Assembly: GCA_964397745.1 (NCBI GenBank)
Contig: CAYNKH010000001.1
Span: 20,232 to 84,231 of the forward strand
DNA length: 64,000 bases
From: an uncultured Bacteroidales bacterium
GTDB lineage: Bacteria; Bacteroidota; Bacteroidia; Bacteroidales; ML635J-15
Direction: 5' to 3'
A model generated the notes under the pieces. The model worked only from the letters and a program-made list of their open reading frames with translations, did no database searches and had not been told where the DNA came from. The position numbers and the translations under genes are program-made. Shown piece after piece: positions 1,957-27,232 of this stretch (position 1 is its first letter; each line of letters starts with the position of its first letter).

Positions 1957-1971
1957 TAAAAAATTAGATTA

Positions 1972-7700: not shown

Positions 7701-7802
7701 AATAATTGACCATTAATGATTAGCATTAACACAAAAAACATGTATATAGAATCGTGAATGAGAATTGAACTGATTTTACATCGCATTCGACAAAAACTTT
7801 TT

Positions 7803-7959: not shown

Positions 7960-7992
7960 CGATATTCTTAGTCCGAATCCAAAAAACCAAAA

Positions 7993-8805: not shown

Positions 8806-8816
8806 AATGATTAGTC

Positions 8817-10508
8817 TTAAAAATCTATTTTTATTTCAATAATCTCTTCGTTTCTAATTATTTTTACTATGGTTTTTTGTCCAGGTTCAAATTCGGACAT
8901 AGCATGCATATATTCATAAATTCCGCCAATTTTTTTGTCTCCTAGTTGAATTATTTTATCTCCTTTTACAATTCCTGATTTATCGGCTACGCCGCCAGGA
9001 CTTATTCCGTCAACTCCTAAGCCGTCAGAGCCTCGTGAAGTCATATCGGGCATTATCCCAAGCTTTACTTTCATTTCTCCACCATGACGAGCTTTTTGTG
9101 ATTGTTCAGACTGGACAAAATTAAGCTTTAAATTTGCTTCTGCGAGCTCATTTATTAGTGAAATGGATAGATTTGTAATGCTTAATAATCCATCAAAGTT
9201 TATTTTATCAATGTCATCAAAAGGGGTATGATAGTCGGTGTGCATTCCTGTGCTAAAAAACATTACGGGTATCTTTTCTGAGTAAAATGAAGCTTGATCA
9301 GAACCAGAAAAACCTCCTCCACCTGCATTTATTTTCAAACTGTCTGATTGCAGTAAATTTAGAACAGAATCAAATTGGCTTGCACTTGTTGCTCCCATTA
9401 TGGACAATCCGGCATCTCCTAAGCGTCCTACCATATCATAATTTATCATACATTTAATTTTTGATATAGTATCAGGCATATTTAGCACAAAATATTTGCT
9501 GCCAAGCAAGCCCTGTTCTTCGGCACCGAAAAGTACGAAAGCTATATTTACTTCAGGACTGTGTTTTGAAAAATATTCTGCCAGCATCATAACAACTGCC
9601 ACACCCGAGGCGTTGTCGTCAGCACCATTGTGAATTTGATATAATTCTGGTTTTCTTGAGCCAGAGTCGTATCCGCCAAAGCCTAAATGATCGTAATGTG
9701 CTCCAATAACAATCCAATCGTCAGATGTTTTTGAATTGATAAACCCTGCAATATTATATGTTGTTCCGAGTTTTTCGCTTGTTTTGATACTCATCTCCAA
9801 ATTAAGAATTGGCTGTTTTGAAATTAAAAAATCAAAAAGAGAGGCATCGTATTTATTCCCAGAATATCCTTTTTGTCGCAATAATTCAGTTAGTGTATTT
9901 CTGCTTATCTGAATTACTGGTAAGGATAATTGTGACGAAGATCTATTATATATAAATGGATAAAATTCTGTGTTTGCTCCTAAGTCAGTATCGGCGACTA
10001 TGATTAATGCTCCAGCTCCTCGTTCGAGAGCCATAATTCCAATTTCTACCAGTGTCCGATATTGTGTTTTTTTATTTTCAGAATTTCCTAATCTGTACAA
10101 AATACATTTTCCATCAACAAACAAACTAGAATCTTGCAAGTCTTCAACATATACAATTTCTGTTGAAATTTCATCATTGCCAGTAAATGTAAAGGGGGTA
10201 TAATCTTGTTCGGCAATTAGTTCTTTGTTGTTAATTCTTAAAAATGAGCTGGAATTAAGTAAAATGCCTGTTGTAATTTCAAAATCTTGCAAATAAGTTG
10301 ACCAAAATTTGTTGAGACCGAATTTATCTAGTTTGGCACTTAAAAATTTTGCTGATTTTAAATCCTCGTGTGTGCCTGCAAGTCTTCCTTCAAGGCTATC
10401 GTTAGACAGTGTTTCAATTACATATTTTCCTGTTAAAATATTTTGTCCTTTGATGTTTCCTGTAAAAACAAAAAAGAATAAAATTGATAGAGTTAAAAAT
10501 AGTTTCAT
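8817..10508 (-). CDS. M28 family metallopeptidase with C-terminal PDZ domain, secreted
   Basis: Signal peptide MKLFLTLSILFFFVFTGNIKGQ. M28 motifs are GAHYDHLGFGG, GADDNASG and FGAEEQGLLGS. The PDZ-like C-terminus is GISPGGVADKSGIVKGDKIIQLGDKKI. Confidence 0.85.
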   Translation of the reverse strand: MKLFLTLSILFFFVFTGNIKGQNILTGKYVIETLSNDSLEGRLAGTHEDLKSAKFLSAKLDKFGLNKFWSTYLQDFEITTGILLNSSSFLRINNKELIAEQDYTPFTFTGNDEISTEIVYVEDLQDSSLFVDGKCILYRLGNSENKKTQYRTLVEIGIMALERGAGALIIVADTDLGANTEFYPFIYNRSSSQLSLPVIQISRNTLTELLRQKGYSGNKYDASLFDFLISKQPILNLEMSIKTSEKLGTTYNIAGFINSKTSDDWIVIGAHYDHLGFGGYDSGSRKPELYQIHNGADDNASGVAVVMMLAEYFSKHSPEVNIAFVLFGAEEQGLLGSKYFVLNMPDTISKIKCMINYDMVGRLGDAGLSIMGATSASQFDSVLNLLQSDSLKINAGGGGFSGSDQASFYSEKIPVMFFSTGMHTDYHTPFDDIDKINFDGLLSITNLSISLINELAEANLKLNFVQSEQSQKARHGGEMKVKLGIMPDMTSRGSDGLGVDGISPGGVADKSGIVKGDKIIQLGDKKIGGIYEYMHAMSEFEPGQKTIVKIIRNEEIIEIKIDF

Positions 10509-10590
10509 TTATTTTAATTTTTATTTATTTGTTGCGAATCAGCAAAATCTTAGAAACAAAACACATTATTAATACTTATGTTCATAGCAA

Positions 10591-10953
10591 CTAAGGTTCA
10601 ATAATCAGATTAAACACATTTTTTCGTTTGCTGCCTTCTGATTGCCAATTTAGGTCTTCTATTTTTGTTGTATCGCCACTTTGTATAAAGCTTATTGATT
10701 GCACTAATTTTAGAAAATCGGAAGAGTTGTTTTTGAATTTTAAGTTTTTGGATTGAAACACAAGCACTTTTTCTTCGGGTTCAGCAACTGTTTCAAATCC
10801 GCCGTTATCGGAAGTTAAGCACAAAATGACCATATCTTTGCCCGTGTTATTAGTGCAATAGAATTTTGTGTCAACCACTAAAGTCCCTGTTCCAATAAAG
10901 AGAGCCGATAGAGAAAATAAAATTCCAATTATTATTTTTATTGTTTTATTCAT
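10591..10953 (-). CDS. Hypothetical small secreted or membrane-anchored protein
   Basis: 120 aa with an N-terminal hydrophobic signal (IKIIIGILFSLSALFIGTG). I recognise no family motif. Confidence 0.5.
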   Translation of the reverse strand: MNKTIKIIIGILFSLSALFIGTGTLVVDTKFYCTNNTGKDMVILCLTSDNGGFETVAEPEEKVLVFQSKNLKFKNNSSDFLKLVQSISFIQSGDTTKIEDLNWQSEGSKRKNVFNLIIEP

Positions 10954-11052
10954 TTATTTTCAAAATTTTATCGACTAAGATAATATTAATTATCTTAGCA
11001 GGAATTATTTTTTAAATGAGTTTGGTTTTTAGTTGATTATTTATACTTGATA

Positions 11053-11631
11053 ATGATGAAGGATATTTGTGTTTTTTGCAGTTCTAGTGAAGATTTGAGT
11101 GAAGACTATTATGTTTTAGCTGACGAGTTGGGAGTTTTGCTAGGTAAGAATAAAATGGATTTGATACATGGTGCTGGTACAATTGGTTTGATGGGGGCTC
11201 TTATGAAATCGGCGGCAGCATCGGGTTGTTTTGTTACTGGCGTTGTGCCCGAAAGACTTAACCGCAAAAATATTGTCTCGGATAAATTGCAAAAACTTGT
11301 GGTAACAACCGACATGAAAGAGCGAAAAGAGTATATGCGGTCTCATTCGGATGCTTTTATTGCATTGCCCGGAGGTTTTGGTACTCTCGAGGAGCTTTTA
11401 GAAATAATTACGCTTAAACAACTAAAATATCACAGCAAACCAATTGTAATATTAAACTACAAGGGATTTTATGATAAACTACTTGAGCAATTTGAGGTTT
11501 TTTACAATGAAGATTTTGCAAACCCCTCGTATAGAGAGCTCTATTTTGTTGCTAAAACATCTACAGAAGCAATAGACTATATCAAAAAATATGTCCCTAA
11601 AAATATTTATGATAAATATTTAGGTGCATGA
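11053..11631 (+). CDS. LOG family protein (TIGR00730-type nucleotide 5'-monophosphate nucleosidase)
   Basis: It carries the PGGFGTLEEL motif plus GAGTIGLMG, and the length is typical at about 190 aa. The track ORF begins at TTG 11047. I prefer the ATG at 11053 or 11056. Confidence 0.85.
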   Translation: MMKDICVFCSSSEDLSEDYYVLADELGVLLGKNKMDLIHGAGTIGLMGALMKSAAASGCFVTGVVPERLNRKNIVSDKLQKLVVTTDMKERKEYMRSHSDAFIALPGGFGTLEELLEIITLKQLKYHSKPIVILNYKGFYDKLLEQFEVFYNEDFANPSYRELYFVAKTSTEAIDYIKKYVPKNIYDKYLGA

Positions 11632-11896
11632 TATGCAAGAGATTTTATTTTTATTGATAAATACTATTTTGTTGTGTTAGAATTAGATTGTTAGCCTGAA
11701 CTATTATCTTCGATGAGAACTTCGCCGTTAGTCGCAGAATTAAAACTATCTGCTTAAGCGACTATATATTTCTCGTAACGTAAAAACGATTGATGTGTTA
11801 CGAACCATTTTGGGTAAGATTCATATATTTGAAAAATACAGGGTAGATATGTCTGTAACTTGTAGTTGATTAATTTGTGAACTATGTTATCGTTTA

Positions 11897-14800
11897 TCAA
11901 TTATCAGTCTTTACCAATTTTACTCTCATTTCTGCAGAGTTTTTATCAGTTTTTAATGCAATAAAATACACACCTGATTGAAAATTACTAATATCTAAGC
12001 AGGTAATTAAATCATTTATATTTTGTTCTATTACAAGCTTACCAGTTATATCATAAACTTTAAGGTACTCGAAAAGTGTGTTTTCTTGCACAATGTTGAT
12101 AAAGTCTTTAGCAGGGTTAGGATAGATTTCGATACTTGAATGATATTCCTCAACACCAATACTTAGTAGCACATTAATATAGACTGTTGCATTTTCATTG
12201 TTATAGTTTAACACATCAGTAGGAGTAAATTCAACATTTAGTGCCTGATTATCTCCAACCTCAAGGATTGTGTTAAAATCTGGATTGTATGCAAAACTTC
12301 CAGCTATATTTGCCGATGCATTTAGTTGAGTTGCTGACAATTCTGTTCCGTAATAAATGTCTGCTGGATTTTCCCAAGTAATTATTGGTGTTGCTTTAGT
12401 TATTTCAAAATTATCAGGATTATAAATAATATCATAATTATTGTTTATATTTAAATCTCCTTGTAGTATTGCGTATAATCCTGCATTTTCACCAGCCTCA
12501 CGAGTAAGTTCTCCGGTGAAATTATCATCTCCAATTAAAGAACCTGAAACTGTATAAGTAAATTCTGCAGGGTCAGCTTCTCCATATATTTTTGATTGAT
12601 TTGCATCGGCAGTTATCGAAATAGATTTTGGTGTTATTTCAAAATCATCAGAATTATAAATAATATCATAATTATTGTTTACACTTAAATCTCCTTGTAG
12701 TATTGCGTATAATCCTGCATTTTCACCAGCCTCACGAGTAAGTTCTCCTGTAAAATTATCACTTCCAATTAAAGAACCTGAAACGGTATAAGTAAATTCT
12801 GTAGGGTCAGCTTCTCCATATATTTTTGATTGATTTGCATCGGCAGTTACGGTAATAGGTTTTTGAGTTATTTCAAAATTATTTGGATAATATGTTATAT
12901 TATAATTATTGCTTAAACTTAAGCTGCCTTGCTGGATTTCATAATTTCCAACATCTTCTCCCGAAACTCGTGTTAAGTTTCCTGCAAAGCTATCACCAAC
13001 GGCTAAAGTTCCTGTATATTCGTATGTGTATTGAGCAGGATCTGCATTTCCATAAATTTTAGTTTGTCCAGCATCTGCAGTAACACTAATTTCTCCTTGT
13101 AAAATCTCAAACATATCGCCATTATAAATAATTATGTAATTTGGACTTATCCACAAGCTTCCTTGCAATATATTGTATGTGCCAACAGTTTCGCCCGATT
13201 CTCTTGTTAAAGCTCCTGAAAAATTATCGCCGCTTGCAAGAGTTCCTGTGTATGTATAGGTGTATGCAGGATTTGCTTCTCCATAATATTTTGTTTGATT
13301 AGGATCGGCAGTTACTGTAATTGATTTTTGCGTAATTTCAAAATCGGCTCCCATAAAGTAAGTATTGTAATTTGAGTTAAGAGCGAGATTTCCTTGGTTT
13401 ATTGCATATTCTCCAACAAATTCGCCTTCCTCACGTTCGAGTGCTCCTGTAAAACTATCCCACGGAGCGATAGGAGAAGATGTTGTAAAAGTAAATTCTG
13501 GATCATCATCTCCATATTCTTTAGATTGGTTTTCATCAACCATTATCCACAAACCTTTAGCTTTAATTTCAAAGTCAGCAGTAGCAAAACTTAAATTATA
13601 ATTGGACCCAAGACTTAATGTCCCTTGTGTTATTGCATAAAAACCAAGACTCTCGCCAGCAACTCTGCTTAATTCTCCTGTAAATTCGTCTCCAGATATT
13701 GGTGAGGGTAAGGCAGAGTAAGTAAGTATAGGGTCTTCATCACCATAAGCTTTAAACTGACCACCAATAACATTTACTGTTATTGGTTTAGCAGTAATTT
13801 CAAAATTCTCATCTGCAAGCGACATTATATAATTACTGCCAGCACTTAATGTGCCTATTGTAATTGCATAAAGACCAGCATCTTCGCCAGCTTCTCTGCT
13901 TAGTAGCCCAGTAAATGTATCTCCCGATGCAAGAGCAGGATTGGTACTATATGTAAATACACTAGGATCCGTTGTTCCATATATTTTAGTTTGACCAGCA
14001 GTAGGTGTTACAGTAATTGTTTTAGCAATAATTTCAAAATCATTACTTGTAAAATCAATTATGTAATTTGAACCTAAGCTTAATGTTCCCTGTTGAATTT
14101 CATAAAACCCTGCATCTTCACCTGTTACTCTGCTGATAGAACCTGTAAAAGCATCTCCTCCAATTAAATTAGGAGTGAAAGAATATGTTAATCCAGGATC
14201 TGTTTCCCCATAAATTTTAGATTGACCAGCATCTGCGGTTACATATATAGTACGTTCAATAATTGCAAAATTGTTTGTAATAAAGCTAATTTCATAATTT
14301 GGTCCAGCACTAAGAGTTCCTATTAAAATTTCATACAGACCAACAGTTTCACCTCCGTTACGAGAAAGTGTTCCAAAGAAATTATCTCCAGTTTCTAGAC
14401 TTCCAACAGTTACGGTATAATTTAATACAGGATCTGAATCTCCATATTCTTTTGTTTGACCTGCATCTGCAGTTACGGTAATAGCTTTTTTATTAACAAT
14501 TAAAGTTTGAGATAATTGAGGAGCTGCTAAATAAGTTTCATTTCCTGGCTGATTTGCATAAATCTCACAAGAACCTGCACTAATAATTGTAATAGTTGAG
14601 CCATTTGTACCACCACACATTGCAATATTATTATCAGAACTTGTAAAAATCACATCTAAACCTGAACTTGCATTTGCAGAAACAATAAAATCATTATCTC
14701 CATAAGTTTTAGCAGCAATAGGATTGAAGTTGCTTATTGTTTGAGGCATTTTATTACCTGTTCCAGTAATTGTAAAATGATACGGATTTTCATCATAATC

Positions 14801-16432
14801 ATTATTTGAAATATTAATTTCGGCAGTATGTAAACCCGAAAATGAGGGTGTAAAAATTATTGTAAATGTTGTTGAGCCACCTGGAACAACAGGCGAACTT
14901 GTGGCAGTTTGATTAATTATAAAATCAGCAGCATTGGTGCCAGAAATTACGATTTTTGGTGTTCCGTCAAGTATAAGATTGTCCACACCTGTATTTTCGA
15001 TTGTAAAAGTTAATTCAGCGCTACTACTCCCATAAACAACATTTCCAAAATCGAAAGTTCCCTCATTAGGGATTTGTGTCGCCTCTTGATATACGTTTAT
15101 TTCACGACAATTATGAAAAAAATACGAAGCACCAGCTTCTGGTCTGTTGTTATTCCCTTCGGCATCATAATCTTGATTCATTGCTCCTGTCAGAATAAAA
15201 CTATTACTTATCGCAACATCGCATCCAAAAAAATCTGCAGGAGTACGATCAAGGCTTACAATTTTTTGTTCTTGTGTCCAGTCAGCTCCATCGTAATAAT
15301 ATATGTATGATGAGCCAGCGGAATTTAATTCGTTTAATCCATTTTCATCATGATCTTCCAAATAAGCTCCTATAATTATATAATCTCCGTCAATATCTAC
15401 AGCACATCCAAACCTATCGCTTTCCTGTCTATCGGAGGCTATAATTTTCGAGTGAAACGTAAGACTTGCACCAGCACCAGGGTTGGAATAAATATATGCC
15501 GAGCCAACATTGGATAGAGATTCGCTTGCACCTTCTCCATAAGCACCAATAATAGCAAAATTATCGTTAATTGCTACATCATATCCAAAAAAACTTTGCG
15601 TTGTTGGTACAGGAGCAAGAAGTTTTGAGATTTGTGACCAAGTGCTACCGTTATAATAAAATACATAAGCCGCACCAGCCGAAAGAAATGTGTTTTCATG
15701 CTTATTATAAGCTCCTGCAATAATATAATTTCCCCAAAGATCAATCGAAAAACCAAAATAATTTTGAGTAGCTCTATCTGACGCAACAATTTTTTGAGTT
15801 TGTGTCCAATTAGTACCATTGTTTTTAAAAACATACATAGAACCTGCACTAGTTAAATTGTTAGCACCACTTACGTCTTCATCTTCGTTAAATGCACCGA
15901 CAACAATAAAATCTCCATCTATTGCAACAGATTGGCCAAAGTAATCGCCGTCAAAACGATCTGATGCAACTATTTTTTGAACTTCTGTCCAAGTACCAGC
16001 ATTATTATAAAAAACATAAGCCGAACCAGCATCCGTTTTAGCATCTGTACCTACAGCATCATGGTCTTCTTTCCATGCACCAACAACGGCATAATCTCCA
16101 TTAATATCAACCGAATAACCAAAATTATCTCCTGCACCACGATCAGAAGCAACAACTTTCTGTATTTCGACCCAAGTGCCACCTGTGTTCTGTAAAATAT
16201 AGGCTGCTCCAGCTTCTAACAATGTAGTACCGCCACCTGAGGCATCTTTATCTTGCCCCCAAGCTCCAACGATTGCAAAATCACCATCTATCGCCACTGA
16301 TTTGCCGTAATAATCTTGTGCATTCCTGTCAGAGGCCGATGCTTTAACAATTTGATCCCAGTTTTGAGCATAAGAACGCCCCGAAAACATGAATATAACG
16401 ATGATAATGAAAAAAAGGCTTGTCGTTTTCAT
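11897..16432 (-). CDS. Giant T9SS-sorted adhesin-like protein: seven-blade FG-GAP propeller, ASH/choice-of-anchor-D-like Ig domain, 9 MBG (YGx) repeats, Por C-terminal domain
   Basis: 1511 aa with a signal peptide. There are seven FG-GAP-like blades (YFGxSVAIDGDFAIVGA...AGAAYVF). An Ig domain reads TFDFGNVVYGSSSAELTFTIENTG...ISNNDYDENPY. Nine ~78-aa repeats have the form ITVTADAGQxKxYGxxDP...G.Y.I..G.L....NY.I. The C-terminus is IEIYPNPAKDFINIV...GVYFIALKTD. Confidence 0.9.
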   Translation of the reverse strand: MKTTSLFFIIIVIFMFSGRSYAQNWDQIVKASASDRNAQDYYGKSVAIDGDFAIVGAWGQDKDASGGGTTLLEAGAAYILQNTGGTWVEIQKVVASDRGAGDNFGYSVDINGDYAVVGAWKEDHDAVGTDAKTDAGSAYVFYNNAGTWTEVQKIVASDRFDGDYFGQSVAIDGDFIVVGAFNEDEDVSGANNLTSAGSMYVFKNNGTNWTQTQKIVASDRATQNYFGFSIDLWGNYIIAGAYNKHENTFLSAGAAYVFYYNGSTWSQISKLLAPVPTTQSFFGYDVAINDNFAIIGAYGEGASESLSNVGSAYIYSNPGAGASLTFHSKIIASDRQESDRFGCAVDIDGDYIIIGAYLEDHDENGLNELNSAGSSYIYYYDGADWTQEQKIVSLDRTPADFFGCDVAISNSFILTGAMNQDYDAEGNNNRPEAGASYFFHNCREINVYQEATQIPNEGTFDFGNVVYGSSSAELTFTIENTGVDNLILDGTPKIVISGTNAADFIINQTATSSPVVPGGSTTFTIIFTPSFSGLHTAEINISNNDYDENPYHFTITGTGNKMPQTISNFNPIAAKTYGDNDFIVSANASSGLDVIFTSSDNNIAMCGGTNGSTITIISAGSCEIYANQPGNETYLAAPQLSQTLIVNKKAITVTADAGQTKEYGDSDPVLNYTVTVGSLETGDNFFGTLSRNGGETVGLYEILIGTLSAGPNYEISFITNNFAIIERTIYVTADAGQSKIYGETDPGLTYSFTPNLIGGDAFTGSISRVTGEDAGFYEIQQGTLSLGSNYIIDFTSNDFEIIAKTITVTPTAGQTKIYGTTDPSVFTYSTNPALASGDTFTGLLSREAGEDAGLYAITIGTLSAGSNYIMSLADENFEITAKPITVNVIGGQFKAYGDEDPILTYSALPSPISGDEFTGELSRVAGESLGFYAITQGTLSLGSNYNLSFATADFEIKAKGLWIMVDENQSKEYGDDDPEFTFTTSSPIAPWDSFTGALEREEGEFVGEYAINQGNLALNSNYNTYFMGADFEITQKSITVTADPNQTKYYGEANPAYTYTYTGTLASGDNFSGALTRESGETVGTYNILQGSLWISPNYIIIYNGDMFEILQGEISVTADAGQTKIYGNADPAQYTYEYTGTLAVGDSFAGNLTRVSGEDVGNYEIQQGSLSLSNNYNITYYPNNFEITQKPITVTADANQSKIYGEADPTEFTYTVSGSLIGSDNFTGELTREAGENAGLYAILQGDLSVNNNYDIIYNSDDFEITPKSISITADANQSKIYGEADPAEFTYTVSGSLIGDDNFTGELTREAGENAGLYAILQGDLNINNNYDIIYNPDNFEITKATPIITWENPADIYYGTELSATQLNASANIAGSFAYNPDFNTILEVGDNQALNVEFTPTDVLNYNNENATVYINVLLSIGVEEYHSSIEIYPNPAKDFINIVQENTLFEYLKVYDITGKLVIEQNINDLITCLDISNFQSGVYFIALKTDKNSAEMRVKLVKTDN
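12401..14490 (-). repeat. Tandem 234-bp coding repeat array (9 MBG units)
   Basis: The TATTTC unit boundaries at 12401, 12635 and 12869 give a 234-bp (78-codon) period. Units 12401-12634 and 12635-12868 differ at only about 18 of 234 positions in my hand alignment. Other units are much more diverged. Confidence 0.85.
15554..16371 (-). repeat. 818-bp tract identical to 20051-20868 (copy 1)
   Basis: A line-by-line comparison shows identity at a constant offset of 4497 bp. The identical spurious ORFs in the track support this (15574-15849 equals 20071-20346; 15977-16195 equals 20474-20692). Confidence 0.9.
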
Positions 16433-16509
16433 AATAATAACGTTTTAAAAAACAATGTGTTTATTCGTTTTATAATAACAATGTAAATCTAAATTTAATT
16501 ATAACTACA

Positions 16510-16517
16510 CAAATATA
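16510..16517 (-). promoter_or_regulatory. Candidate -7 box (TATATTTG) for adhesin paralog 1
   Basis: The minus strand reads cTTATATTTGtg, about 78 nt upstream of the ATG at 16432. The same octamer is found upstream of paralog 2. Confidence 0.4.
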
Positions 16518-16621
16518 AGTTTTTTTGTCTGAATTTACACATTACTTTGTAATTTAATGTTTAATTTCCATCTAATAATATCAATTATTAATAAATTGAT
16601 TAAGTGAGAATAGGTAACAGT

Positions 16622-19600
16622 TTAATAATTGTCAGTTTTTACCAATTTAACTCTTATTTCTGCAGATGAGTTATCAGTTTTTAATGCAATAAAATACACT
16701 CCTGATGGTAAATTACTAATATCTAAACAGGTAATTAAAGCATCTAAGTTTTGTTCTATTACAATCTTACCTGTTATATCATAAACTTTAAGATGTTTGA
16801 AAAGTGTGTTTCCCTGCATAATATTGACATAGTCTTTGGCGGGGTTAGGATAGACTTCTATGCTTGAACGATACTCAGTAATATTACTATTAAGGAGTAC
16901 GTTAATATAAGCTGTTGCATTTGCATTGTTGTAATTAAAATAATTGTCTGGGATGAACTCAACATTTAACGCCTGATTATCTCCAACCTCAAGGATTGTG
17001 CTAAAATCTGGAATGTAATAAAAGTTTCCAGATATATTTGCTGATGCATTAAGCTGGTTTTCAGTTAGTTCAGTCCCATAATAAATGTCTGCTGGATTTT
17101 CCCAAGTAATTATTGGTGTTGCTTTTGTTATTTCAAAATTATCTGAAATATATGAAATAGCATAGTTGTTGTTTAGATTTAAATTTCCTTGTAATATTTG
17201 ATAAAACCCAACATTATCGCCTGTTTCACGTGTGAGCTCTCCTGTAAAACTATCGCCTCCAATTAAAGAACCCAAAACGGTATAAGTAAATTCTGTAGGG
17301 TCATCTTCTCCAAATACTTTTGATTGATTTGCATCAGCAGTTACGTTAATGGGTTTTTGAGTTATTTCAAAATTATTTGGATAATATGTTATGTTGTAAT
17401 TATTGTTTAGGCTTAAGCTACCTTGCTGGATTTCATAATTTCCTACGTTTTCGCCAGCCTCACGAGTAAGTTCTCCTGTAAAAATGTCAAAAATGAATAA
17501 ATCCCCTGTATATGTGTAAGTGTATTCAGTTGGGTTAGCATCTCCGTAGGTTTTGGTTTGCCCAGCATTTGCGAAAACACTAATTTCTTCGTGTAAAATC
17601 TCGAATACATCATCATTATATATAATTTGATAATTTGGATTTACCCACAAGCTTGCTTGTAATATGTTGTATGTGCCAACATCTTCGCCCGATTGTCTTT
17701 CTAAATTTCCTGAAAAACCATCTCCATTTTGGAGTGTTCCTGTATATGAGTAAGTGTATGCATCTGGATTTGGCTCACCATAATATTTTGATTGGTTAGG
17801 ATCGACAGTTACTGTAATTATTTTTCGGGTAATTTCAAACTCTTCTTCCATAAATACGATGCTATAATTTGAGTTAAGAGCGAGACTACCTTGGGTTATC
17901 ATATAAGCTCCAACATCTTCGCCTGGTACACGTGCAAGTTCGCCAGTAAAATTGTCTCCCAATGCGAGCGATGAGTTTATTGTATAAGTAAATACTGGAT
18001 CATCATCTCCATATTCTTTAGATTGGTTCGGATCAACTTGTACCGATAAGCCTTTTACTTTAATTTCAAAACTGGCAGCAGTAAAGTTTAAATTGTAGTT
18101 CGACCCAAGGCTTAATGTGCCTTGTGTTATAGCATAAAAACCTAGACTTTCTCCAGGTGCTCTGCTTAACTCACCAGTTAATTCGTCTTCGTTTGCTAAT
18201 GTTCCCATTAACCAATAAGCAAATGTAGGATCGGTATCACCATAAAGTTTACTTTGGTCAGGATAAACAACTATTGTAATTGGTCTAGCAATAATTTCAA
18301 AAACTTCATCTACAAACGTCAATATATAATTATCTCCAGCATCTAATGTGCCAAGTGTAATTGCATAAAAACCAACATCTTCACCAGCTACCCTTTCGAG
18401 TGCTCCAGTAAAAGTGTCTCCTTGTACAAGAGCTGGATAAATGCTATAAACAAATGCAGAAGGGTCTGTTGTTCCATAGGTTTTAGATTGGGTAGAATTG
18501 GGTGTAATCGTAATTGTTTTAGCAATAATTTCAAAATCATTACTTATAAAATCAATTATGTAATTAGAATTTAAGCTTAATGTTCCTTGTTGAATTTCGT
18601 AATTTCCTATATTTTCACCAGATACTCTTATTATTGAACCACTAAAAGCATCTCCGTCAATTATATTAGGATAATATGAATAAGTTAGTGTTGGATCTGA
18701 TTGTCCATAAATTTTAGATTGACCAACATCTGCGGTTACATATATAGTGCGTTCAATAATTGCAAAATCGTCTGTAATAAAGCTAATTTCATAATTTGGA
18801 CCAGCACTCAGATCCCCAATCAGAATTTCATACAGACCAACAGTTTCACCAGCGACACGTGTAAGTGCTCCAGAGAAATCATCTCCAGTTTCCAAACCTT
18901 CTGGACTCACAGTATAAGTTAACACAGGATCTATTTCACCGTAGTCTTTTGTTTGTCCTGCATCAGCAGTTACAGTAATAATTTTTTTATTAACAATTAG
19001 GGTTTGACTATCTTGTGGAGCTGCTAAGTAAATTCCATTACCTGGTTGATTTGCGTAAATCTCGCAAGAACCTACACCTGTGATTGTAATATTTGAGCCA
19101 TTAGTCCCTCCACAAATTGCGATATTGTTATCTGAGCTAGTAAAAATTACATCTAAACCTGAGCTTGCCGTTGCAGAAACAATAAAATCGTCGTCTCCAT
19201 AAGTTTTAACATCAATTGGGTTAAATTCACTTATTGTTTGCGGTATTTTAGCTCCTATTCCGATAATTGTAAACACAAATGGATTTTCATCATAATCATT
19301 ATTTGAAATTTTAATTTCGGCAGTATGTAAGCCTATAAATGATGGTGTGAAAATTATTGTAAACGTTGTTGTCCCACCTGGTATAACAGGCGAGCTTGTG
19401 GCTGATTGATTAAGTGCAAAATCAGTAGCATTGGTTCCATAGATTTCAATTATTGGTATTCCGTCAAGTATAAGATTATCCATACCAGTGTTTTCTATTG
19501 TAAAAATTAATTCTGGACTACTACTACCAATCTCAATATGCCCAAAATCGAAAGTTCCTTTTTTTTCAATTTCTGTTGTATCTTGATATACAAAAATCTC

Positions 19601-20929
19601 ACGACAATTATGAAATATATAAGCTGCACCAGCTTCAGGTCTCTCATTTTGACCGTCTGCGTCAAAGTCTTGATACATAGCTCCTGCAATAATAAAATTA
19701 TTACTTATTGAAACATCGTATGCAAAATAATCTACAATATTGCGATCAAGATTTACGATTTTTTGTTCTTGCGTCCATTCAAATTCATCGTAATGATATA
19801 TATATGCTGCACCAGCAAAATCCCTTAGGTTAAGACCATTTTCATCAAGAGAATGATTATAAGCACCTACAACAATATAATTTTCGTCAATATCTACTGA
19901 GCATCCAAAATTATCATTACTCAGTTGGTCGGAGGCCGCTATTTTAGATGAAAATGACAAAGCAGTTCCAGCACCAGGATTTGAATATATATATGCTGCA
20001 CCTGTATTGGTAATAAATTCGTTTTCATCCTCGCCTCTAGCTCCTACAACAGCAAAATTATCGTTAATTGCTACATCATATCCAAAAAAACTTTGCGTTG
20101 TTGGTACAGGAGCAAGAAGTTTTGAGATTTGTGACCAAGTGCTACCGTTATAATAAAATACATAAGCCGCACCAGCCGAAAGAAATGTGTTTTCATGCTT
20201 ATTATAAGCTCCTGCAATAATATAATTTCCCCAAAGATCAATCGAAAAACCAAAATAATTTTGAGTAGCTCTATCTGACGCAACAATTTTTTGAGTTTGT
20301 GTCCAATTAGTACCATTGTTTTTAAAAACATACATAGAACCTGCACTAGTTAAATTGTTAGCACCACTTACGTCTTCATCTTCGTTAAATGCACCGACAA
20401 CAATAAAATCTCCATCTATTGCAACAGATTGGCCAAAGTAATCGCCGTCAAAACGATCTGATGCAACTATTTTTTGAACTTCTGTCCAAGTACCAGCATT
20501 ATTATAAAAAACATAAGCCGAACCAGCATCCGTTTTAGCATCTGTACCTACAGCATCATGGTCTTCTTTCCATGCACCAACAACGGCATAATCTCCATTA
20601 ATATCAACCGAATAACCAAAATTATCTCCTGCACCACGATCAGAAGCAACAACTTTCTGTATTTCGACCCAAGTGCCACCTGTGTTCTGTAAAATATAGG
20701 CTGCTCCAGCTTCTAACAATGTAGTACCGCCACCTGAGGCATCTTTATCTTGCCCCCAAGCTCCAACGATTGCAAAATCACCATCTATCGCCACTGATTT
20801 GCCGTAATAATCTTGTGCATTCCTGTCAGAGGCCGATGCTTTAACAATTTGATCCCAGTTTTGAGCATTACTGCGTAAAGAAAACAGAATCATGACAATA
20901 ATAATAGAAAAAATGCATGTTGTTTTCAT
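16622..20929 (-). CDS. Giant T9SS-sorted adhesin-like protein, tandem paralog (FG-GAP propeller, Ig domain, 8 MBG repeats, Por C-terminal domain)
   Basis: 1435 aa with the same architecture as 11897-16432. Residues ~23-294 are identical to the paralog and the rest is diverged. The C-terminus is IEVYPNPAKDYVNIM...GVYFIALKTD. Confidence 0.9.
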   Translation of the reverse strand: MKTTCIFSIIIVMILFSLRSNAQNWDQIVKASASDRNAQDYYGKSVAIDGDFAIVGAWGQDKDASGGGTTLLEAGAAYILQNTGGTWVEIQKVVASDRGAGDNFGYSVDINGDYAVVGAWKEDHDAVGTDAKTDAGSAYVFYNNAGTWTEVQKIVASDRFDGDYFGQSVAIDGDFIVVGAFNEDEDVSGANNLTSAGSMYVFKNNGTNWTQTQKIVASDRATQNYFGFSIDLWGNYIIAGAYNKHENTFLSAGAAYVFYYNGSTWSQISKLLAPVPTTQSFFGYDVAINDNFAVVGARGEDENEFITNTGAAYIYSNPGAGTALSFSSKIAASDQLSNDNFGCSVDIDENYIVVGAYNHSLDENGLNLRDFAGAAYIYHYDEFEWTQEQKIVNLDRNIVDYFAYDVSISNNFIIAGAMYQDFDADGQNERPEAGAAYIFHNCREIFVYQDTTEIEKKGTFDFGHIEIGSSSPELIFTIENTGMDNLILDGIPIIEIYGTNATDFALNQSATSSPVIPGGTTTFTIIFTPSFIGLHTAEIKISNNDYDENPFVFTIIGIGAKIPQTISEFNPIDVKTYGDDDFIVSATASSGLDVIFTSSDNNIAICGGTNGSNITITGVGSCEIYANQPGNGIYLAAPQDSQTLIVNKKIITVTADAGQTKDYGEIDPVLTYTVSPEGLETGDDFSGALTRVAGETVGLYEILIGDLSAGPNYEISFITDDFAIIERTIYVTADVGQSKIYGQSDPTLTYSYYPNIIDGDAFSGSIIRVSGENIGNYEIQQGTLSLNSNYIIDFISNDFEIIAKTITITPNSTQSKTYGTTDPSAFVYSIYPALVQGDTFTGALERVAGEDVGFYAITLGTLDAGDNYILTFVDEVFEIIARPITIVVYPDQSKLYGDTDPTFAYWLMGTLANEDELTGELSRAPGESLGFYAITQGTLSLGSNYNLNFTAASFEIKVKGLSVQVDPNQSKEYGDDDPVFTYTINSSLALGDNFTGELARVPGEDVGAYMITQGSLALNSNYSIVFMEEEFEITRKIITVTVDPNQSKYYGEPNPDAYTYSYTGTLQNGDGFSGNLERQSGEDVGTYNILQASLWVNPNYQIIYNDDVFEILHEEISVFANAGQTKTYGDANPTEYTYTYTGDLFIFDIFTGELTREAGENVGNYEIQQGSLSLNNNYNITYYPNNFEITQKPINVTADANQSKVFGEDDPTEFTYTVLGSLIGGDSFTGELTRETGDNVGFYQILQGNLNLNNNYAISYISDNFEITKATPIITWENPADIYYGTELTENQLNASANISGNFYYIPDFSTILEVGDNQALNVEFIPDNYFNYNNANATAYINVLLNSNITEYRSSIEVYPNPAKDYVNIMQGNTLFKHLKVYDITGKIVIEQNLDALITCLDISNLPSGVYFIALKTDNSSAEIRVKLVKTDNY
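17129..18990 (-). repeat. Tandem 234-bp coding repeat array (8 MBG units)
   Basis: It shows the same 78-codon periodicity as the paralog (I[TS]V..D..Q[ST]K.YG..[DN]P). It has one unit fewer than paralog 1. Confidence 0.8.
20051..20868 (-). repeat. 818-bp tract identical to 15554-16371 (copy 2)
   Basis: See copy 1. Identity ends abruptly at both edges: 20050 vs 15553 and 20869 vs 16372 differ. Confidence 0.9.
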
Positions 20930-20995
20930 AGTAATGAAATTTCTATAACAATCAGCTTTTTGTTTATAATATCAAGATAAATGATATTATATGTG

Positions 20996-21003
20996 CAAAT
21001 ATA
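20996..21003 (-). promoter_or_regulatory. Candidate -7 box (TATATTTG) for adhesin paralog 2
   Basis: The minus strand reads cTTATATTTGca, about 67 nt upstream of the ATG at 20929. Confidence 0.4.
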
Positions 21004-21302
21004 AGGAATTTTTGTTAATGTTGGGATGGAGGGTTAGAAATTTTTAGAAAAAGCTTTAAATAAACTGATTTACCTCGCCATTATACGAAGTATTTGAGCA
21101 GAGCCATACACCCCACTCAGTTCCTTCCACTTCGTTTAGTGTTTTTTTCGCGTTTTCTTTTGACGTAGCTCGCCAGAGTTTAGTTTTCTGTGTTTTTTAC
21201 TTTTTTCGTGAAATACTCCCTGCGATTTTTGGATATCGGGGTTTTTTGTATGAACCGACAAAAAATAATTATTAGCCATCTTAGTTTGCAACTAACTTAT
21301 AT

Positions 21303-21720
21303 TTAAGTGTTTACAGGTAGTGGTTGAGTTTTTTTGAAAACTTCATTGTTGCGATCTCGCAATGCATCTCCAGCCGTACTTTTTGCTAGGACGCTATCCA
21401 TACCAAGATAATTTAGTTTCCCTGCCAAAGCTCGCATTCCGTCACAGACTTCGCCCATAGAATCGCAGCGAGAAAAAATCCCGAAGAGCATCACAACTAA
21501 TTGATGCCATGAGAAAAATGACTTGTAATAACGGTCAGTTCCGCATTGTTTTACTAAAATATCAAATTGATCTTTTGGTAATAAATTTATCAATTGTTTG
21601 AATACCGGCTGACCGACTAAATTTTTTTTTTTTGCAAAACAAATTTACGACATTAGTGCGAAACCTTATGGGAGTAGCCCTACTTTTGTTAAAATTTTAA
21701 TCGGTCAGTACTGGTTTTTT
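21303..21720 (-). mobile_element. Truncated IS4-family insertion-sequence remnant (N-terminal DUF4372-type transposase fragment plus upstream end)
   Basis: The 96-aa ORF 21303-21593 (F.ILVKQCGTDRYYKSFFSWHQLVVMLFGIFSRCDSMGEVCDGMRALAGKLNYLGM...KST..DALRDRNNEVF) fits the N-terminal region of Bacteroidota IS4-type transposases, but no DDE catalytic domain follows. Upstream there is a TAAATTTG box, a T12 run (21622-21633) and an 8-bp inverted pair (CTGACCGA/TCGGTCAG). Confidence 0.6.
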
Positions 21721-21796
21721 TATAAAATATAATGGCGTTTATCGTAATGTATTTGCGAAACCTCACTTTTTACTCTTCACTCTCGCCCCACCAACT

Positions 21797-22213
21797 TTAT
21801 TTAAAATCACTTTTACGCCTTTCTTTCTTTTCAGAAGTTTTGCGTTTTCCTTTTAACCTGTTCTCAATTGAGGCTTTTGATGGTTTTGTTTTGACACGCT
21901 TTTTATGTTTTTTTAGCGACTTATTTATCAATTCATAAAATCGAGCAATAACATTTTCTTTATTTTTATGTTGAGATCTATCTTCTTGTGAGGATAAAAA
22001 TAAAATGCTCTCATTATTAATTCGCGATTTTAATTTCTTGAGTATAGTGCATTTTTGTTCTTCTGAAAGAATTTGAGAATTTAAAACATCAAAACGCAGC
22101 TCTGCTTTAGAGTTAACTTTGTTGACATTTTGTCCGCCCGGACCAGTAGAACGGATAAACGAAAATACAAGCTCAGCATCTAAACTTCCAAGTTTTATAA
22201 TTTCATCATTCAT
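21797..22213 (-). CDS. arfB: Alternative ribosome-rescue factor ArfB (peptidyl-tRNA hydrolase, ICT1/YaeJ family)
   Basis: 138 aa with the GGQ motif (GPGGQNVNKVNSKAELRF) and a basic C-terminal tail (KKHKKRVKTKPSKASIENRLKGKRKTSEKKERRK). Confidence 0.9.
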   Translation of the reverse strand: MNDEIIKLGSLDAELVFSFIRSTGPGGQNVNKVNSKAELRFDVLNSQILSEEQKCTILKKLKSRINNESILFLSSQEDRSQHKNKENVIARFYELINKSLKKHKKRVKTKPSKASIENRLKGKRKTSEKKERRKSDFK

Positions 22214-22419
22214 TATCGTAAAGGCTTTAACAAATACTCCAAGCCATTCAATCTAATTTCATACATCGTATGAAGCAGCATTCCTAAATTCCCAGTAGGA
22301 AAACCTTTTGCGTGATACCAAACCAAATAGTGCTCTGGAATATCACAAATCACTCTTCCCTTGTACTTGCCAAAGGGCATTCGAGTTGCAACTAATTGTA
22401 ATAAAATTGTTTTGTCCAT
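22213..22419 (-). CDS. DUF3820 family protein
   Basis: 68 aa. MPFGKYKGRVICDIPEHYLVWY...GFPTGNLG matches my memory of the DUF3820 pattern. Its TAA overlaps the arfB ATG by 1 nt (TAATG). Confidence 0.7.
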   Translation of the reverse strand: MDKTILLQLVATRMPFGKYKGRVICDIPEHYLVWYHAKGFPTGNLGMLLHTMYEIRLNGLEYLLKPLR

Positions 22420-22424
22420 TGCTG

Positions 22425-22432
22425 CAAATATA
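22425..22432 (-). promoter_or_regulatory. Candidate -7 box (TATATTTG) for the DUF3820-arfB pair
   Basis: The minus strand reads TATATTTGcagcaATG. The box ends only 5 nt before the start codon, which would imply a leaderless or near-leaderless mRNA. Confidence 0.3.
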
Positions 22433-22561
22433 GTAAAAAGACTAAATGTTAAAGCATCAAAATCTATTTTCTCTGATTATCTAAACACAAAATTCACAAT
22501 TATTATATTCTTCTGGCACTCTTTTTGAACAAAAAGCTTTATCTTCGTAAAAAAATATAAG

Positions 22562-23863
22562 ATGAGAAAAATTCTAATATTATTATCTATAGTTTTTGTT
22601 GCCACAGCTGTTTACCCACAGTCTGTTGCGGTAAAAAAACCAATGGGGCGTTTTTGGTATAACTGTTTAACTAAACGTGTTGAAAGTCCTAAACGTGATG
22701 AACGTAGGATGAAAAAAGGTGTGCGAATTATCAAACGAAAAGATGTATCATCAAATCAACTTTATAAACTTTCGCTTATTTTCCAACAAGATGAATATCG
22801 CTTAGGATTTGTAAAAGGAGCATACCCAAGCGTTACAGATAAATCGAATGCAATAATTCTGTGCGATGCTTTTGAAAAGTTCTCACATCAAACAATTATG
22901 TGGGAGTATATTAAGCAGCAAAATCCTCGTTATGGGATTGAACCAACCGACATAAACTCCTTTCAAGATTATCTTACAATGAGGGACAGAAAAAAAGACC
23001 GTCAGTACGATAAAGATAAAAAGACTGATGGTGAAGATAAGACCAAAGATGCTGATAGTGAGAAAGATACCAAGGTTTCAGAGCCAGAATCCAAAACAGA
23101 AATAGTTGAAAAACCCGAAAAACCTATTGACAAACCCGAAGTCGAAAAAGAAATAATTAAGGAAGAAAATAACATCTCATCATCTGAGAAGATTGTTTTT
23201 CCTAATGCTGCAATATATTCAGGAACTAATAAAGGTTGCGACAACTATCTAAACGACAAACAATTTGTTGCTTTTGCAAATACTGTATCTCAATTTGAAG
23301 ATGACGAAGAAAAAGCAAAAATCTGTATGGAATATGTCTATACTTATTGTTTTACAACCGAACAGGTAATGAAACTTGGTGTTATCATAAAGTCTGAACC
23401 ACATCGCTATATTTTCTTTAAAACTGCTTATCCTAAAGTATATGATAAAGATAATTTTTTACACGTAAAACAGGTCTTGACAACCGATAAGTTTATACAC
23501 GGAATAAATGAAATCTACGAAGTTCCTAAATCGCCAAAACCTTATGGCGTACCGCTTGAAGTTGTTGCGGAATCGTGTGTCTTAAATGAGCAAGATTTCT
23601 CTAAAATCAAATCCGAAATTCGTAAGGAGACATTCTCATCAACTAGACTTGAAACTGCTCAAAGATTGGTTGAGCAATACGAATGTATTAGTTCGGCGCA
23701 GGTTAAAGAGTTATTGAGTTTATTCTCGCTCGAAACAGATAAAGTCGATTTTGCAAAGTTTGCCTATCCATTTACAAACGACCCCAAAAACTATAATTTA
23801 GTGAGAGATTATTTCACATCTCAATCTGGTAAAAATGCAATTAATGCGATTATGAATGAGTAA
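22562..23863 (+). CDS. DUF4476 domain-containing secreted protein with a central K/E/D-rich linker
   Basis: Signal peptide MRKILILLSIVFVATAVYPQ. Two DUF4476-like modules are present (…QVKELLSLFSLETDKVDFAKFAYPFTNDPKNYNLVRDYF…; …QVMKLGVIIKSEPHRYIFFKTAYPKVYDKDNF…). A low-complexity acidic/basic segment covers aa ~145-200. Confidence 0.65.
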   Translation: MRKILILLSIVFVATAVYPQSVAVKKPMGRFWYNCLTKRVESPKRDERRMKKGVRIIKRKDVSSNQLYKLSLIFQQDEYRLGFVKGAYPSVTDKSNAIILCDAFEKFSHQTIMWEYIKQQNPRYGIEPTDINSFQDYLTMRDRKKDRQYDKDKKTDGEDKTKDADSEKDTKVSEPESKTEIVEKPEKPIDKPEVEKEIIKEENNISSSEKIVFPNAAIYSGTNKGCDNYLNDKQFVAFANTVSQFEDDEEKAKICMEYVYTYCFTTEQVMKLGVIIKSEPHRYIFFKTAYPKVYDKDNFLHVKQVLTTDKFIHGINEIYEVPKSPKPYGVPLEVVAESCVLNEQDFSKIKSEIRKETFSSTRLETAQRLVEQYECISSAQVKELLSLFSLETDKVDFAKFAYPFTNDPKNYNLVRDYFTSQSGKNAINAIMNE

Positions 23864-23933
23864 GGGTTTGAAATTCGTTTTAATAATCAAAGTAATAGCT
23901 AAATTATAAAACTAAATTTCCTTAGATTTTTTT

Positions 23934-23941
23934 TATATTTG
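23934..23941 (+). promoter_or_regulatory. Candidate -7 box (TATATTTG)
   Basis: Matches TAnnTTTG, 19 nt upstream of the ATG at 23961. Confidence 0.4.
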
Positions 23942-23960
23942 CAGTAGTTAATAACTCTAA

Positions 23961-25481
23961 ATGAAGCATTTTCTTCAGATATTATTTTTGTTGTGTCCAA
24001 GTTTTATCTTTGCACAAGATTATCCGCTAACTGGTCATTTCCAAAACCTTAACGAAAAAAGTATCTATTATAATGATAATTCAACTCTTATTCGCCCAGC
24101 TACTGGAGTCGAAAATGAAATTTATGATAGCTTAATTTTTACAGTTGAAAAAAACGCTGATAAATCATGGCTAAATAGAAAAGTATTTCGCGAACATCTT
24201 TTTGTGCAAAATGATGAGCGATTCAAATTATTACTTGATCCAATTATAGATTTTAGATTAAATAGCCATAATTTTGTTGAAACAGGATATTTGAACACTC
24301 GTGGAATTCTATTAAGTGGTAATTTAGATTCAAAAATATATTTTAACACCTCTTTTTATGAGAATCAGGGGGTTTTTCCAATGCAAATTTATGATTATTA
24401 CGAGTTTTACAGTGTAATTCCAGGTTACGGCAGAATAAAACCTTTAAGCAGAACAAACGAATATGATTTTGGCACCGCTTACGGTAATATTTCTTTTCGA
24501 GCGACTGAAAATTTGAATTTCTCATTAGGATATGATAGACTTTTTATTGGTGATGGATATCGCTCAATGATTTTATCAGATTTTGCTGCACCGATGATGT
24601 ATTTTAAGACTTCTGTTAAATTCGGCAAATTTGAGTACAACAATATTTTTACAAAAGCACTTAATCCAAACTTTAACAATGTGATGGATTTTGATGTGCC
24701 AACAAGCATGAATAGTCGTTATCCATCAAAATATATTTCGTACAATACATTAACATATAAACTTAATAATTGGCAATTTTCTTTAATTGAAGCTCTTGTT
24801 ATGTCAGATGATTTGCCTAATTGGAAAGTGCCAGCTTATACTTTTTCGCCATTTTTTAGAACCGCTTATATTGATTATAAAAAGCAACTGACAAATAATC
24901 TTATTGGAGCTAATATTACATGGAGTAATCCGAGTATTGGAGTTTTTTATTCTCAATTTATGTTAGATTCTTGGTATGAAAATTACTCTCCTGATTTTGC
25001 TCTTCAATTGGGGTATAAGAATTTTGATTTCTTAAATGTGCAAAATTTATATTTTCAGATGGAGATTAATTATTCTTCAGATTATATTTACACTCATCCA
25101 AATAATGAATTGTATTATGGACATTATAACCAAGCTTTGGCACATCCTGCAGGAGCAAATATTACTGAGTTAATTATATTGTCAGCTTACTCTATTAAGC
25201 GATTCGAGCTTGTTGGAAAAATCAATTTTTACTACGATTATACAGATTCTTATATATGCAGCGATTTGCGTAATATTGGATTAGTTATTCCTACAAGATC
25301 ATATATATCTGGTGATTTCCTAAAAGCTGAGGCACAATTAATTTACAATGTAAATCGTGCAAACAAATTACAAGTTTTTTGTTCTTGCGATATTTTTATA
25401 GACCATAGAGTTTATGATACTTTTATGTTTTATCAATTGGGTATTCGTACTGCAATTCGAAGTAATTATTACGACTTTTAG
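23961..25481 (+). CDS. Putative outer-membrane beta-barrel protein, Wzi/RemB-like (tentative family)
   Basis: 506 aa with signal peptide MKHFLQILFLLCPSFIFAQ. Motifs are LFIGDGYRSMILSDFA and YGHYNQALAHPAGANI, and it ends in an aromatic residue (YYDF). It is a paralog of the next gene. The CDS is solid. The family name is from memory of capsule-assembly Wzi and gliding RemB-type proteins. Confidence 0.5.
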   Translation: MKHFLQILFLLCPSFIFAQDYPLTGHFQNLNEKSIYYNDNSTLIRPATGVENEIYDSLIFTVEKNADKSWLNRKVFREHLFVQNDERFKLLLDPIIDFRLNSHNFVETGYLNTRGILLSGNLDSKIYFNTSFYENQGVFPMQIYDYYEFYSVIPGYGRIKPLSRTNEYDFGTAYGNISFRATENLNFSLGYDRLFIGDGYRSMILSDFAAPMMYFKTSVKFGKFEYNNIFTKALNPNFNNVMDFDVPTSMNSRYPSKYISYNTLTYKLNNWQFSLIEALVMSDDLPNWKVPAYTFSPFFRTAYIDYKKQLTNNLIGANITWSNPSIGVFYSQFMLDSWYENYSPDFALQLGYKNFDFLNVQNLYFQMEINYSSDYIYTHPNNELYYGHYNQALAHPAGANITELIILSAYSIKRFELVGKINFYYDYTDSYICSDLRNIGLVIPTRSYISGDFLKAEAQLIYNVNRANKLQVFCSCDIFIDHRVYDTFMFYQLGIRTAIRSNYYDF

Positions 25482-27065: not shown

Positions 27066-27094
27066 AAATCGATAGAACTATAATGGGATATAGT

Positions 27095-27116
27095 CACGAC
27101 AATCGTGCGGTAGCGG
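27095..27116. repeat. CACGA-caa-TCGTG-CGGTAGCGG hairpin module (family B)
   Basis: Lies 30 nt after the stop at 27065. The same module type occurs at 4828-4848 and 52277-52297. Confidence 0.6.
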
Positions 27117-27203
27117 TGTTGGTTCAGAACAAAAAAACTTGAGCAATCAAACCTGAAAACTCTAAAAAAAAGCAACAGTGTTCAATTTTTATGTTTTTTT
27201 TTG

Positions 27204-27211
27204 TAAATTTG
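27204..27211 (+). promoter_or_regulatory. Candidate -7 box (TAAATTTG)
   Basis: Matches TAnnTTTG, 21 nt upstream of the TTG start at 27233. Confidence 0.35.
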
Positions 27212-27232
27212 TCTTAACCTGATTAAGTAAAT

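Follow-up and report, generated by a model that had tools for sequence, protein, structure and literature searches.

Concerted evolution by gene conversion is well known from the tufA/tufB genes and from rRNA operons. In Porphyromonas gingivalis, the products of hagA, rgpA and kgp are cargo of the type IX secretion system (T9SS). For these genes it has been proposed that identical repeats within and between genes, in combination with allelic exchange, diversify the surface proteins (PMC5266723). Conversion among the bab genes of Helicobacter pylori yields chimeric genes, the junctions of which lie ~60-240 bp from the start codon (PMC4552749), and RF1/RF2 are an example of gene conversion between duplicated bacterial genes with incongruent segments (PMC4530459). 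Here we report on a stretch of DNA from an uncultured Bacteroidales bacterium (contig CAYNKH010000001.1; the whole 64 kb that were analysed are referred to as the window), in which two tandem genes for putative adhesins, A and B, share a perfectly identical tract of 818 bp. As in the known cases of concerted evolution, the identity of the paralogues in this tract is far above background, and phylogenetic incongruence separates converted from unconverted segments. We consider it very likely that the tract is the product of one very recent non-reciprocal homologous recombination, i.e. a gene conversion, between old tandem paralogues.

Results

An identical tract in two diverged tandem genes

Both genes are located on the minus strand. 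According to the list of open reading frames (ORFs) and Pfam, gene B (16622..20929, 1435 aa) is the upstream paralogue and gene A (11897..16432, 1511 aa) the downstream one, with a spacer of 189 nt between them. The original prediction had claimed that the two genes share 818 identical bp in the same orientation at an offset of 4497 bp, and the alignment bears this out completely. With 0/818 mismatches, the copy in A (15554..16371, minus strand) and the copy in B (20051..20868, minus strand) form the longest exact run at that offset. In each gene the tract occupies nt 62-879, which corresponds to residues 22-293 (~23-294 in the prediction). The ORF coordinates, both signal-peptide sequences and the domain order that had been put forward were found to be correct as well. 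A self-comparison of the 64-kb window showed no repeat with 95% identity or more besides the tract pair, and no third copy of the tract.

The edges of the tract are as abrupt, and its flanks as diverged, as the prediction had held. In sliding windows of 50 nt the identity is 1.00 all along the tract. On the gene-3′ side it falls to 0.6-0.8, and 5′ of the tract (beyond window positions 16371 and 20868, respectively) it amounts to ~0.7 in the signal-peptide codons and to ~0.4 farther upstream. Overall, A and B are ~77% identical outside the tract. A codon alignment revealed synonymous differences at 0/181 sites in the tract; in every other A/B segment the synonymous divergence (dS) is 0.41-1.8 and the ratio of nonsynonymous to synonymous divergence (dN/dS) is 0.14-0.42. 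When the 756 mismatches were re-placed at random over the 4299 aligned A/B sites in 5000 trials, the longest identical run had a mean of 36.8 nt, a 95th percentile of 50 nt, a 99.9th percentile of 70 nt and a maximum of 86 nt, compared with the 818 nt observed. At the divergence of the flanks, the analytic probability of an 818-nt run without any mismatch is ~1e-91.

A second identical patch near the 3′ ends of the genes had also been predicted. Such a patch is indeed shared (12351-12397 in A and 17079-17125 in B), yet it measures 47 nt, and the 48-mer that had been quoted for it occurs only once, at position 17078. We rejected the patch as a second conversion tract; because its length is within chance for genes this similar (95th percentile 50 nt), it is not independent evidence of conversion.

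In terms of the encoded proteins, the tract starts at the alanine of the signal-peptidase site (SxA↓Q), and its end falls within the fifth FG-GAP repeat, after the first and before the second strand of that repeat. This agrees with the predicted placement in blades 1-4 and part of blade 5. The mature A and B proteins are now identical in their first 272 residues, which form the first four FG-GAP repeats plus the opening strand of the fifth.

Paralogues group inside the tract and orthologues outside

Relatives were obtained from a genome scan and a metagenome scan and share ~76-93% protein identity in their best segments; neither scan returned a same-species contig covering the tract. The closest relatives are metagenome-assembled genomes (MAGs) of uncultured Bacteroidales. 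One MAG contig, L001, carries this tandem pair too, with a B-type copy of 1430 aa followed, as in the window, by an A-type copy of 1509 aa. This pair is uniformly ~76% identical with a longest identical run of 55 nt and lacks a comparable tract. Contig L008 comprises the 3′ end of a B-type gene, a spacer and the 5′ start of an A-type gene, and L016 is a B-type gene on a 78.6-kb metagenome contig.

Comparison with L001 shows a change of affinity in B. Outside the tract, B is 90% (repeats 5-7) and 92% (immunoglobulin-like (Ig) domain) identical to the upstream copy of L001, versus 72% inside. With the downstream copy it shares 70% and 75% in the same two segments and 80% inside, where its sequence is the same as that of A. 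A itself is 78% and 80% identical to the downstream copy outside the tract and 80% inside. Taking the B-orthologues L016 and the L001 upstream copy together, B is 72-73% identical to them inside the tract and 89-93% after nt 880.

The quartet-informative sites follow the same pattern. Inside the tract, 62-63 sites group A with B and 0 support the orthologue grouping (a split of 63:0:0). Over nt 880-2000, 85-104 sites unite A with the downstream copy of L001 and B with either its upstream copy or L016, as compared with 7-18 that unite A and B. The phylogenetic incongruence in the tract is complete: paralogues group inside and orthologues outside. Since L001 has both gene types without the tract, and since the orthologues group together outside it, the duplication is old, while the tract is recent and lineage-specific. 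This is in line with the recent gene conversion that the original prediction had proposed.

It is important to note that these data also speak against two other origins of a long identical tract, namely selection at the nucleotide level, for instance on an embedded RNA or regulatory element, and a recent whole-gene duplication of which the tract would be the remnant, the rest having diverged fast. Nothing specific points to either of them, apart from the family-wide conservation of the N-terminal sequence AQNWDQI. Over the same 818 nt, however, orthologues differ in 20-28% of their nucleotides, which argues that there is no nucleotide-level constraint, and a dS of 0.4-1.0 outside the tract, together with the presence of both paralogue types in L001, makes the duplication an old one. 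Hence, we attach almost no credence to these two explanations.

A appears to be the donor and B the recipient

The divergence of B from its orthologues amounts to 218-228/815 sites in the tract versus 74-129/1121 sites after it. For A and its orthologue, the downstream copy of L001, it is unchanged, with 160/818 sites (19.6%) in the tract versus 233/1115 (20.9%) outside. Across the 5′ boundary, A and its closer relative L008 are 93% and then 90-98% identical without a break. B and L016 are 93-98% identical over nt -42 to +67, after which the identity collapses to 55-83%. Because A is unbroken relative to its orthologues, and B breaks at nt 62-90 and at nt 879/880, A was most likely the donor and B the recipient of a non-reciprocal transfer. 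Thus, the tract copy in A probably represents native donor sequence and the copy in B converted recipient sequence.

One could also imagine that A and B each independently obtained the same 818-nt segment from a third source, be it another paralogue or foreign DNA. The window makes 64 kb of the genome visible, and exact patches of 341-375 nt between B-type alleles suggest that DNA is exchanged between lineages at this locus. Against such a source stands the observation that the tract of A is as diverged from the orthologue (19.6%) as the rest of A (20.9%). Furthermore, L008 runs on with A over the 5′ boundary, A has no breakpoint, and no third copy lies within the window. A third source is thus very improbable.

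The junctions of the shared tract

The position of the 5′ junction is confined to a zone in B (20840..20868, minus strand; 16343-16371 in A) that consists of the 29-nt block ATGCTCAAAACTGGGATCAAATTGTTAAA, which encodes AQNWDQIVK. The block is identical in A, in B and in L016, a B-type allele without the conversion. Upstream of it, A and B last differ at nt 61, and the first site at which B sides with A against L016 is at nt 91. The 5′ end of the conversion would accordingly fall somewhere within the ATGCTCAAAACTGGGATCAAATTGTTAAA block. At the 3′ junction (20046..20056 in B, minus strand), B sides with A against L016 and the L001 upstream copy at nt 870, 872, 873 and 879, and from nt 880 on it sides with L016 and the L001 upstream copy against A, which places the switch between gene nt 879 and 880. 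Around this switch the shared identity extends over ~5 nt, and the exact-run list contains no run of at least 14 nt common to A-type and B-type sequences between nt 786 and 931. From the mapped 5′ block and the nt 879/880 switch, the converted length is therefore 789-818 nt.

The anatomy of the junctions is also relevant to the question of an assembly or polishing artefact. In this scenario the true head of B would be native B-type sequence, into which A sequence was written by a mis-join, by a strain-chimeric assembly or by a consensus of mis-mapped reads. Such errors are a concern for a window that is seemingly derived from a metagenome, given that its MutS2 is found with 100% identity on three Logan contigs, each of them from a different run. 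Related short-read contigs break within these genes (L008 at 228 nt into A), and L025 stops exactly 30 nt into the 47-nt A/B patch, as a k=31 graph predicts. However, an artefact would require two mis-joins, and the ~5 nt of A/B identity that the B-type proxies show at the 3′ junction are too short for a join in a k-mer graph. As native B-type and A-type sequences are ~72-73% identical here, polishing by mis-mapped reads is implausible. The reading frame has been kept, and the X-R-Y-R-Z layout has one graph path, so that a correct traversal of the repeats is feasible. Given the anatomy of the junctions, an artefact origin appears unlikely. As to the remainder of the window, three independent Logan assemblies reproduce parts of it on the A side, the longest being L025, which has 4 mismatches over window positions 1-12380. 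On the other side, positions 21467-28324 are covered by a fourth Logan contig, L028, which stems from the run that also yielded L025.

A gene conversion scenario and the points against it

Gene conversion, the explanation that we favour, could have proceeded as follows. With A as the template, 789-818 nt of B (gene nt 62/91 to 879) would have been overwritten. A break or gap in B may have been repaired by RecA-type strand invasion into A, either on the same or on the sister chromosome, one end being anchored in the 29-nt block common to all alleles (AQNWDQIVK). Copying or heteroduplex repair would then have stopped where no notable identity exists, without a crossover. The promoter region, signal peptide, repeats 5-7, Ig domain, MBG stalk and sorting domain of B are still its own, and the same holds for A. 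As judged from the alignments, the head of B is now a chimera in which A-type repeats 1-4(5) are followed by B-type repeats 5-7. B-type and A-type proteins differ in ~35% of the residues in the tract interval, plus a one-codon indel. One step would thus have replaced ~95 amino-acid differences and the one-codon indel in the head of B.

Several points weigh against this interpretation. Exact-protein look-ups came back empty for A and B, and likewise for a predicted C-terminal piece of B (161 aa) that was designed from the k=31 break rule of Logan contigs. Neither reads nor an independent contig across either copy of the tract were obtained, which formally leaves room for an artefact. Protein databases queried with B 1-560 and A 284-700 returned only distant FG-GAP proteins with at most 57% identity. 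The proxies for unconverted B, i.e. L016 and the upstream copy of L001, are other lineages at ~90% identity, and they sit on short-read metagenome contigs with mosaic patterns. In addition, the break-repair mechanism without crossover is deduced from the anatomy of the junctions only. Finally, an identity of ~72%, as it exists between native A and B sequences in this region, is low for exchange driven by RecA, and for that reason the event must be rare.

Architecture of the A and B proteins

Pfam assigns the same architecture to A and B. Seven FG-GAP_2 repeats are followed by a HYDIN/VesB-like Ig domain and by a stalk of MBG_2 repeats (9 in A, 8 in B), and both proteins terminate in a Por_Secre_tail domain (PF18962, E ~1e-14). 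The hydrophobic N-termini, which end in SYA↓Q and SNA↓Q in the pair, indicate signal peptides. With an N-terminal Sec signal peptide and a C-terminal type A sorting domain, A and B have the predicted hallmarks of T9SS cargo.

An AlphaFold model of B residues 1-560, computed from a 40-sequence alignment, has a mean predicted local distance difference test (pLDDT) score of 93 and shows a topology of 7 x 4 beta-strands followed by an Ig sandwich. A search of the PDB by sequence alone gave no match beyond the sorting domain. With Foldseek, the best PDB matches of the B model are the headpieces of integrins alpha4, alpha6, alphaV, alpha5 and alphaX (E 1e-22 to 1e-17, probability 1.00, TM-score ~0.5). 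According to the model of B and the common Pfam architecture, both proteins would thus possess an integrin-alpha-like head made up of a seven-bladed FG-GAP beta-propeller and an Ig-like domain. What they have in common with the integrin alpha headpiece is the propeller together with the (thigh) Ig domain. The sequence identity, however, is only 12-15%, a beta-subunit partner is not evident for A/B, their stalk consists of MBG repeats, and they would be anchored via the T9SS sorting domain. A literature search for the combination of MBG, FG-GAP and T9SS found nothing. The term adhesin is used for A and B in a putative sense, on the strength of their architecture.

The stalk of A contains a tandem duplication of an MBG unit (12398..12931, minus strand). 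The unit measures 234 nt, and neighbouring units are 89% identical, which indicates that the duplication is fairly recent. Because of this internal duplication, A has an extra 78 aa relative to B.

Consequences of a perfect direct repeat

RecA-dependent deletion and duplication classically act on long perfect direct repeats. The pair now bears perfect direct repeats of 818 bp, which could mediate the loss or amplification of the 4.5-kb unit. The original prediction had named the repeats as such a substrate, and had expected chimeric adhesins from it. While the first part is sound in principle, chimeric mature adhesins were an overstatement. As a crossover would lie within identical sequence, recombination between the repeats gives no new mature proteins. 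A deletion would place the promoter and signal peptide of B on an otherwise A-identical mature protein, and a triplication would add a gene with the promoter and signal peptide of A on a B-identical mature protein. Present-day B appears to be the chimeric adhesin that is already there.

It had also been suggested that one- or three-copy variants be sought in relatives. Single copies do exist in L002, L003 and L004, where they lie in different genomic contexts and show 59-79% identity. None of the relatives yielded a variant with one or three copies that is attributable to the tract, as L002-L004 are too diverged to be deletion products.

Possible recurrent exchange

Two further exact patches link B to other lineages. 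Gene nt 1651-1991 of B (window 18939-19279) are identical to L016 over 341 nt, and gene nt 1865-2239 (window 18691-19065) are identical to L008 over 375 nt, in each case in a background of 78-90% identity. Apart from this, L016 is 99-100% identical to the upstream copy of L001. The patches reflect either recent recombination between lineages or strain-chimeric short-read contigs.

These exact 341-375-nt patches, the internal duplication of the MBG unit, and the nearby insertion sequence (IS) remnant and rearrangement (see below) may be hints at a broader process. A and B, together with the allele pool of co-occurring lineages, might constitute a head-swapping contingency locus in which propeller and stalk segments are exchanged repeatedly. 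We regard this as a rather doubtful proposal. If it were true, the binding specificity of T9SS surface proteins would be re-assorted, and the 818-nt tract would be a snapshot of an ongoing process.

Genomic context

The promoter-like sequence CTTATATTTG has only two matches in the 64-kb window, one upstream of each gene. The match of B (20996..21005, minus strand) lies 67-76 nt upstream of its ATG and outside the tract, and that of A (16510..16519, minus strand) lies 78-87 nt upstream of its ATG, in the B-A spacer. CTTATATTTG fits the sequence TAnnTTTG, which we take to be the Bacteroidota -7 promoter consensus as published for Bacteroides. Each paralogue probably has its own promoter, and both promoters would be outside the tract.

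The G+C content is ~33%, and the neighbourhood is ordinary chromosome. It comprises mutS2, sodA/B, ruvB and tyrS as well as genes for an M28 peptidase, a LOG-family protein, an RF-1-domain protein, the large subunit of ribonucleotide reductase, a Kdo transferase and a hybrid-cluster protein. Genes for T9SS cargo abound in this region, since a Por_Secre_tail domain is found in at least three more ORFs of the window, which encode an SprB-repeat protein (28-1209, plus strand), a DUF3244 protein (4918-6861, minus strand) and an M1 peptidase (30746-33091, plus strand). Genes for a reverse transcriptase, an invertase or an integrase were absent from the ORFs scanned in the window.

Directly upstream of the promoter region of B lies the truncated N-terminus of an IS4-type transposase (DUF4372; 21303..21593, minus strand; 96-aa ORF, Pfam E = 1.7e-18), near the end of the similarity to L016, where the blastn alignment stops at ~21251. 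The Logan contig L028 ends inside this remnant at window position 21467, as expected for a sequence that is repeated elsewhere in the genome. The synteny with L016 is broken: window segments 1352-4486 and 20930-21251 match L016 4227-7419 and 9681-10000. L016 has mutS2, a DEAD-box helicase gene and gene B in a co-linear arrangement on a single strand. The window gave no match to the helicase gene, and its mutS2 is found on the strand opposite to A, ~7.4 kb past the 3′ end of that gene. The different layout of mutS2 and B would fit an inversion or another rearrangement with one breakpoint beside the IS remnant. The Logan contigs L025-L027 confirm the layout of the window on the mutS2 side.

Two contigs of related MAGs and metagenomes begin or end within the genes. 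L008 (3049 nt) stops 228 nt into its A-type gene, so that it covers 166 nt of the stretch that corresponds to the tract, and L017 (4219 nt) begins at ~nt 822 of its B-type gene. These contig ends could be due to similar repeats in those genomes or to plain low coverage.

Discussion

The A/B pair illustrates that paralogues which are ~72% identical in the region concerned can still exchange ~0.8 kb, and that a single event can swap ~35% of the residues over the first four-plus repeats of a propeller that putatively binds ligands. The conversion leaves promoter and signal peptide untouched. Donor and recipient can be told apart, and both junctions can be placed to within a few bases. There are practical implications, too. 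Exact repeats such as this tract fragment short-read assemblies, as illustrated by the contig breaks in the relatives, and analyses of orthology and selection in these surface proteins need to treat each segment separately.

Dedicated systems for sequence diversification were considered and rejected. In a diversity-generating retroelement the template and variable repeats would differ at adenine positions, whereas the copies in A and B are identical, and the ORFs scanned contain no reverse transcriptase domain. The identity of the copies likewise argues against an invertase switch, for which no gene is present in the ORFs scanned. A programmed conversion from cassettes, as in pilE/pilS, vlsE or msp2, in which many silent donors that lack a promoter recurrently feed one expression site, does not match the locus either. 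There are only two copies, each of them full-length, and A and B each have their own start codon, signal peptide and promoter-like motif. The window contains no further copy, and the tract is missing from the sister lineage L001.

The A/B pair thus has to be compared with systems in which ordinary paralogues recombine. In the cases of concerted evolution, housekeeping genes are kept alike in the long term, whereas A and B are an otherwise freely diverging pair with a single recent patch. In its logic, the closest analogue is babA/babB/babC of H. pylori, where intragenomic non-reciprocal recombination also occurs between paralogous surface adhesin genes and where both members are likewise full-length genes of the expressed type without silent cassettes. 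The bab loci, however, are dispersed while A and B are in tandem, and the Bab proteins are autotransporter-like outer-membrane proteins while A and B are predicted T9SS cargo. In bab conversion, a phase-variable CT repeat is transferred and expression is thereby altered; no simple-sequence switch was noticed in the A/B sequence as read, a dedicated tandem-repeat scan not having been run. Moreover, bab events have been seen experimentally and in many isolates, whereas for A/B one event is deduced from one sequence.

By taxon and secretion route, the closest analogue is hagA/rgpA/kgp of P. gingivalis, a member of the Bacteroidales with large surface proteins. Here, too, there are differences. 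The hagA/rgpA/kgp genes are dispersed and have been compared in many strains, and their domains are of the cleaved adhesin/haemagglutinin type, in contrast to the FG-GAP propeller and MBG stalk of A/B. The sequence shared among hagA, rgpA and kgp is located in C-terminal adhesin modules, whereas that shared by A and B is located in the N-terminal head. Set beside these systems, the A/B pair is a clear but ordinary case of gene conversion that does not point to a new mechanism.

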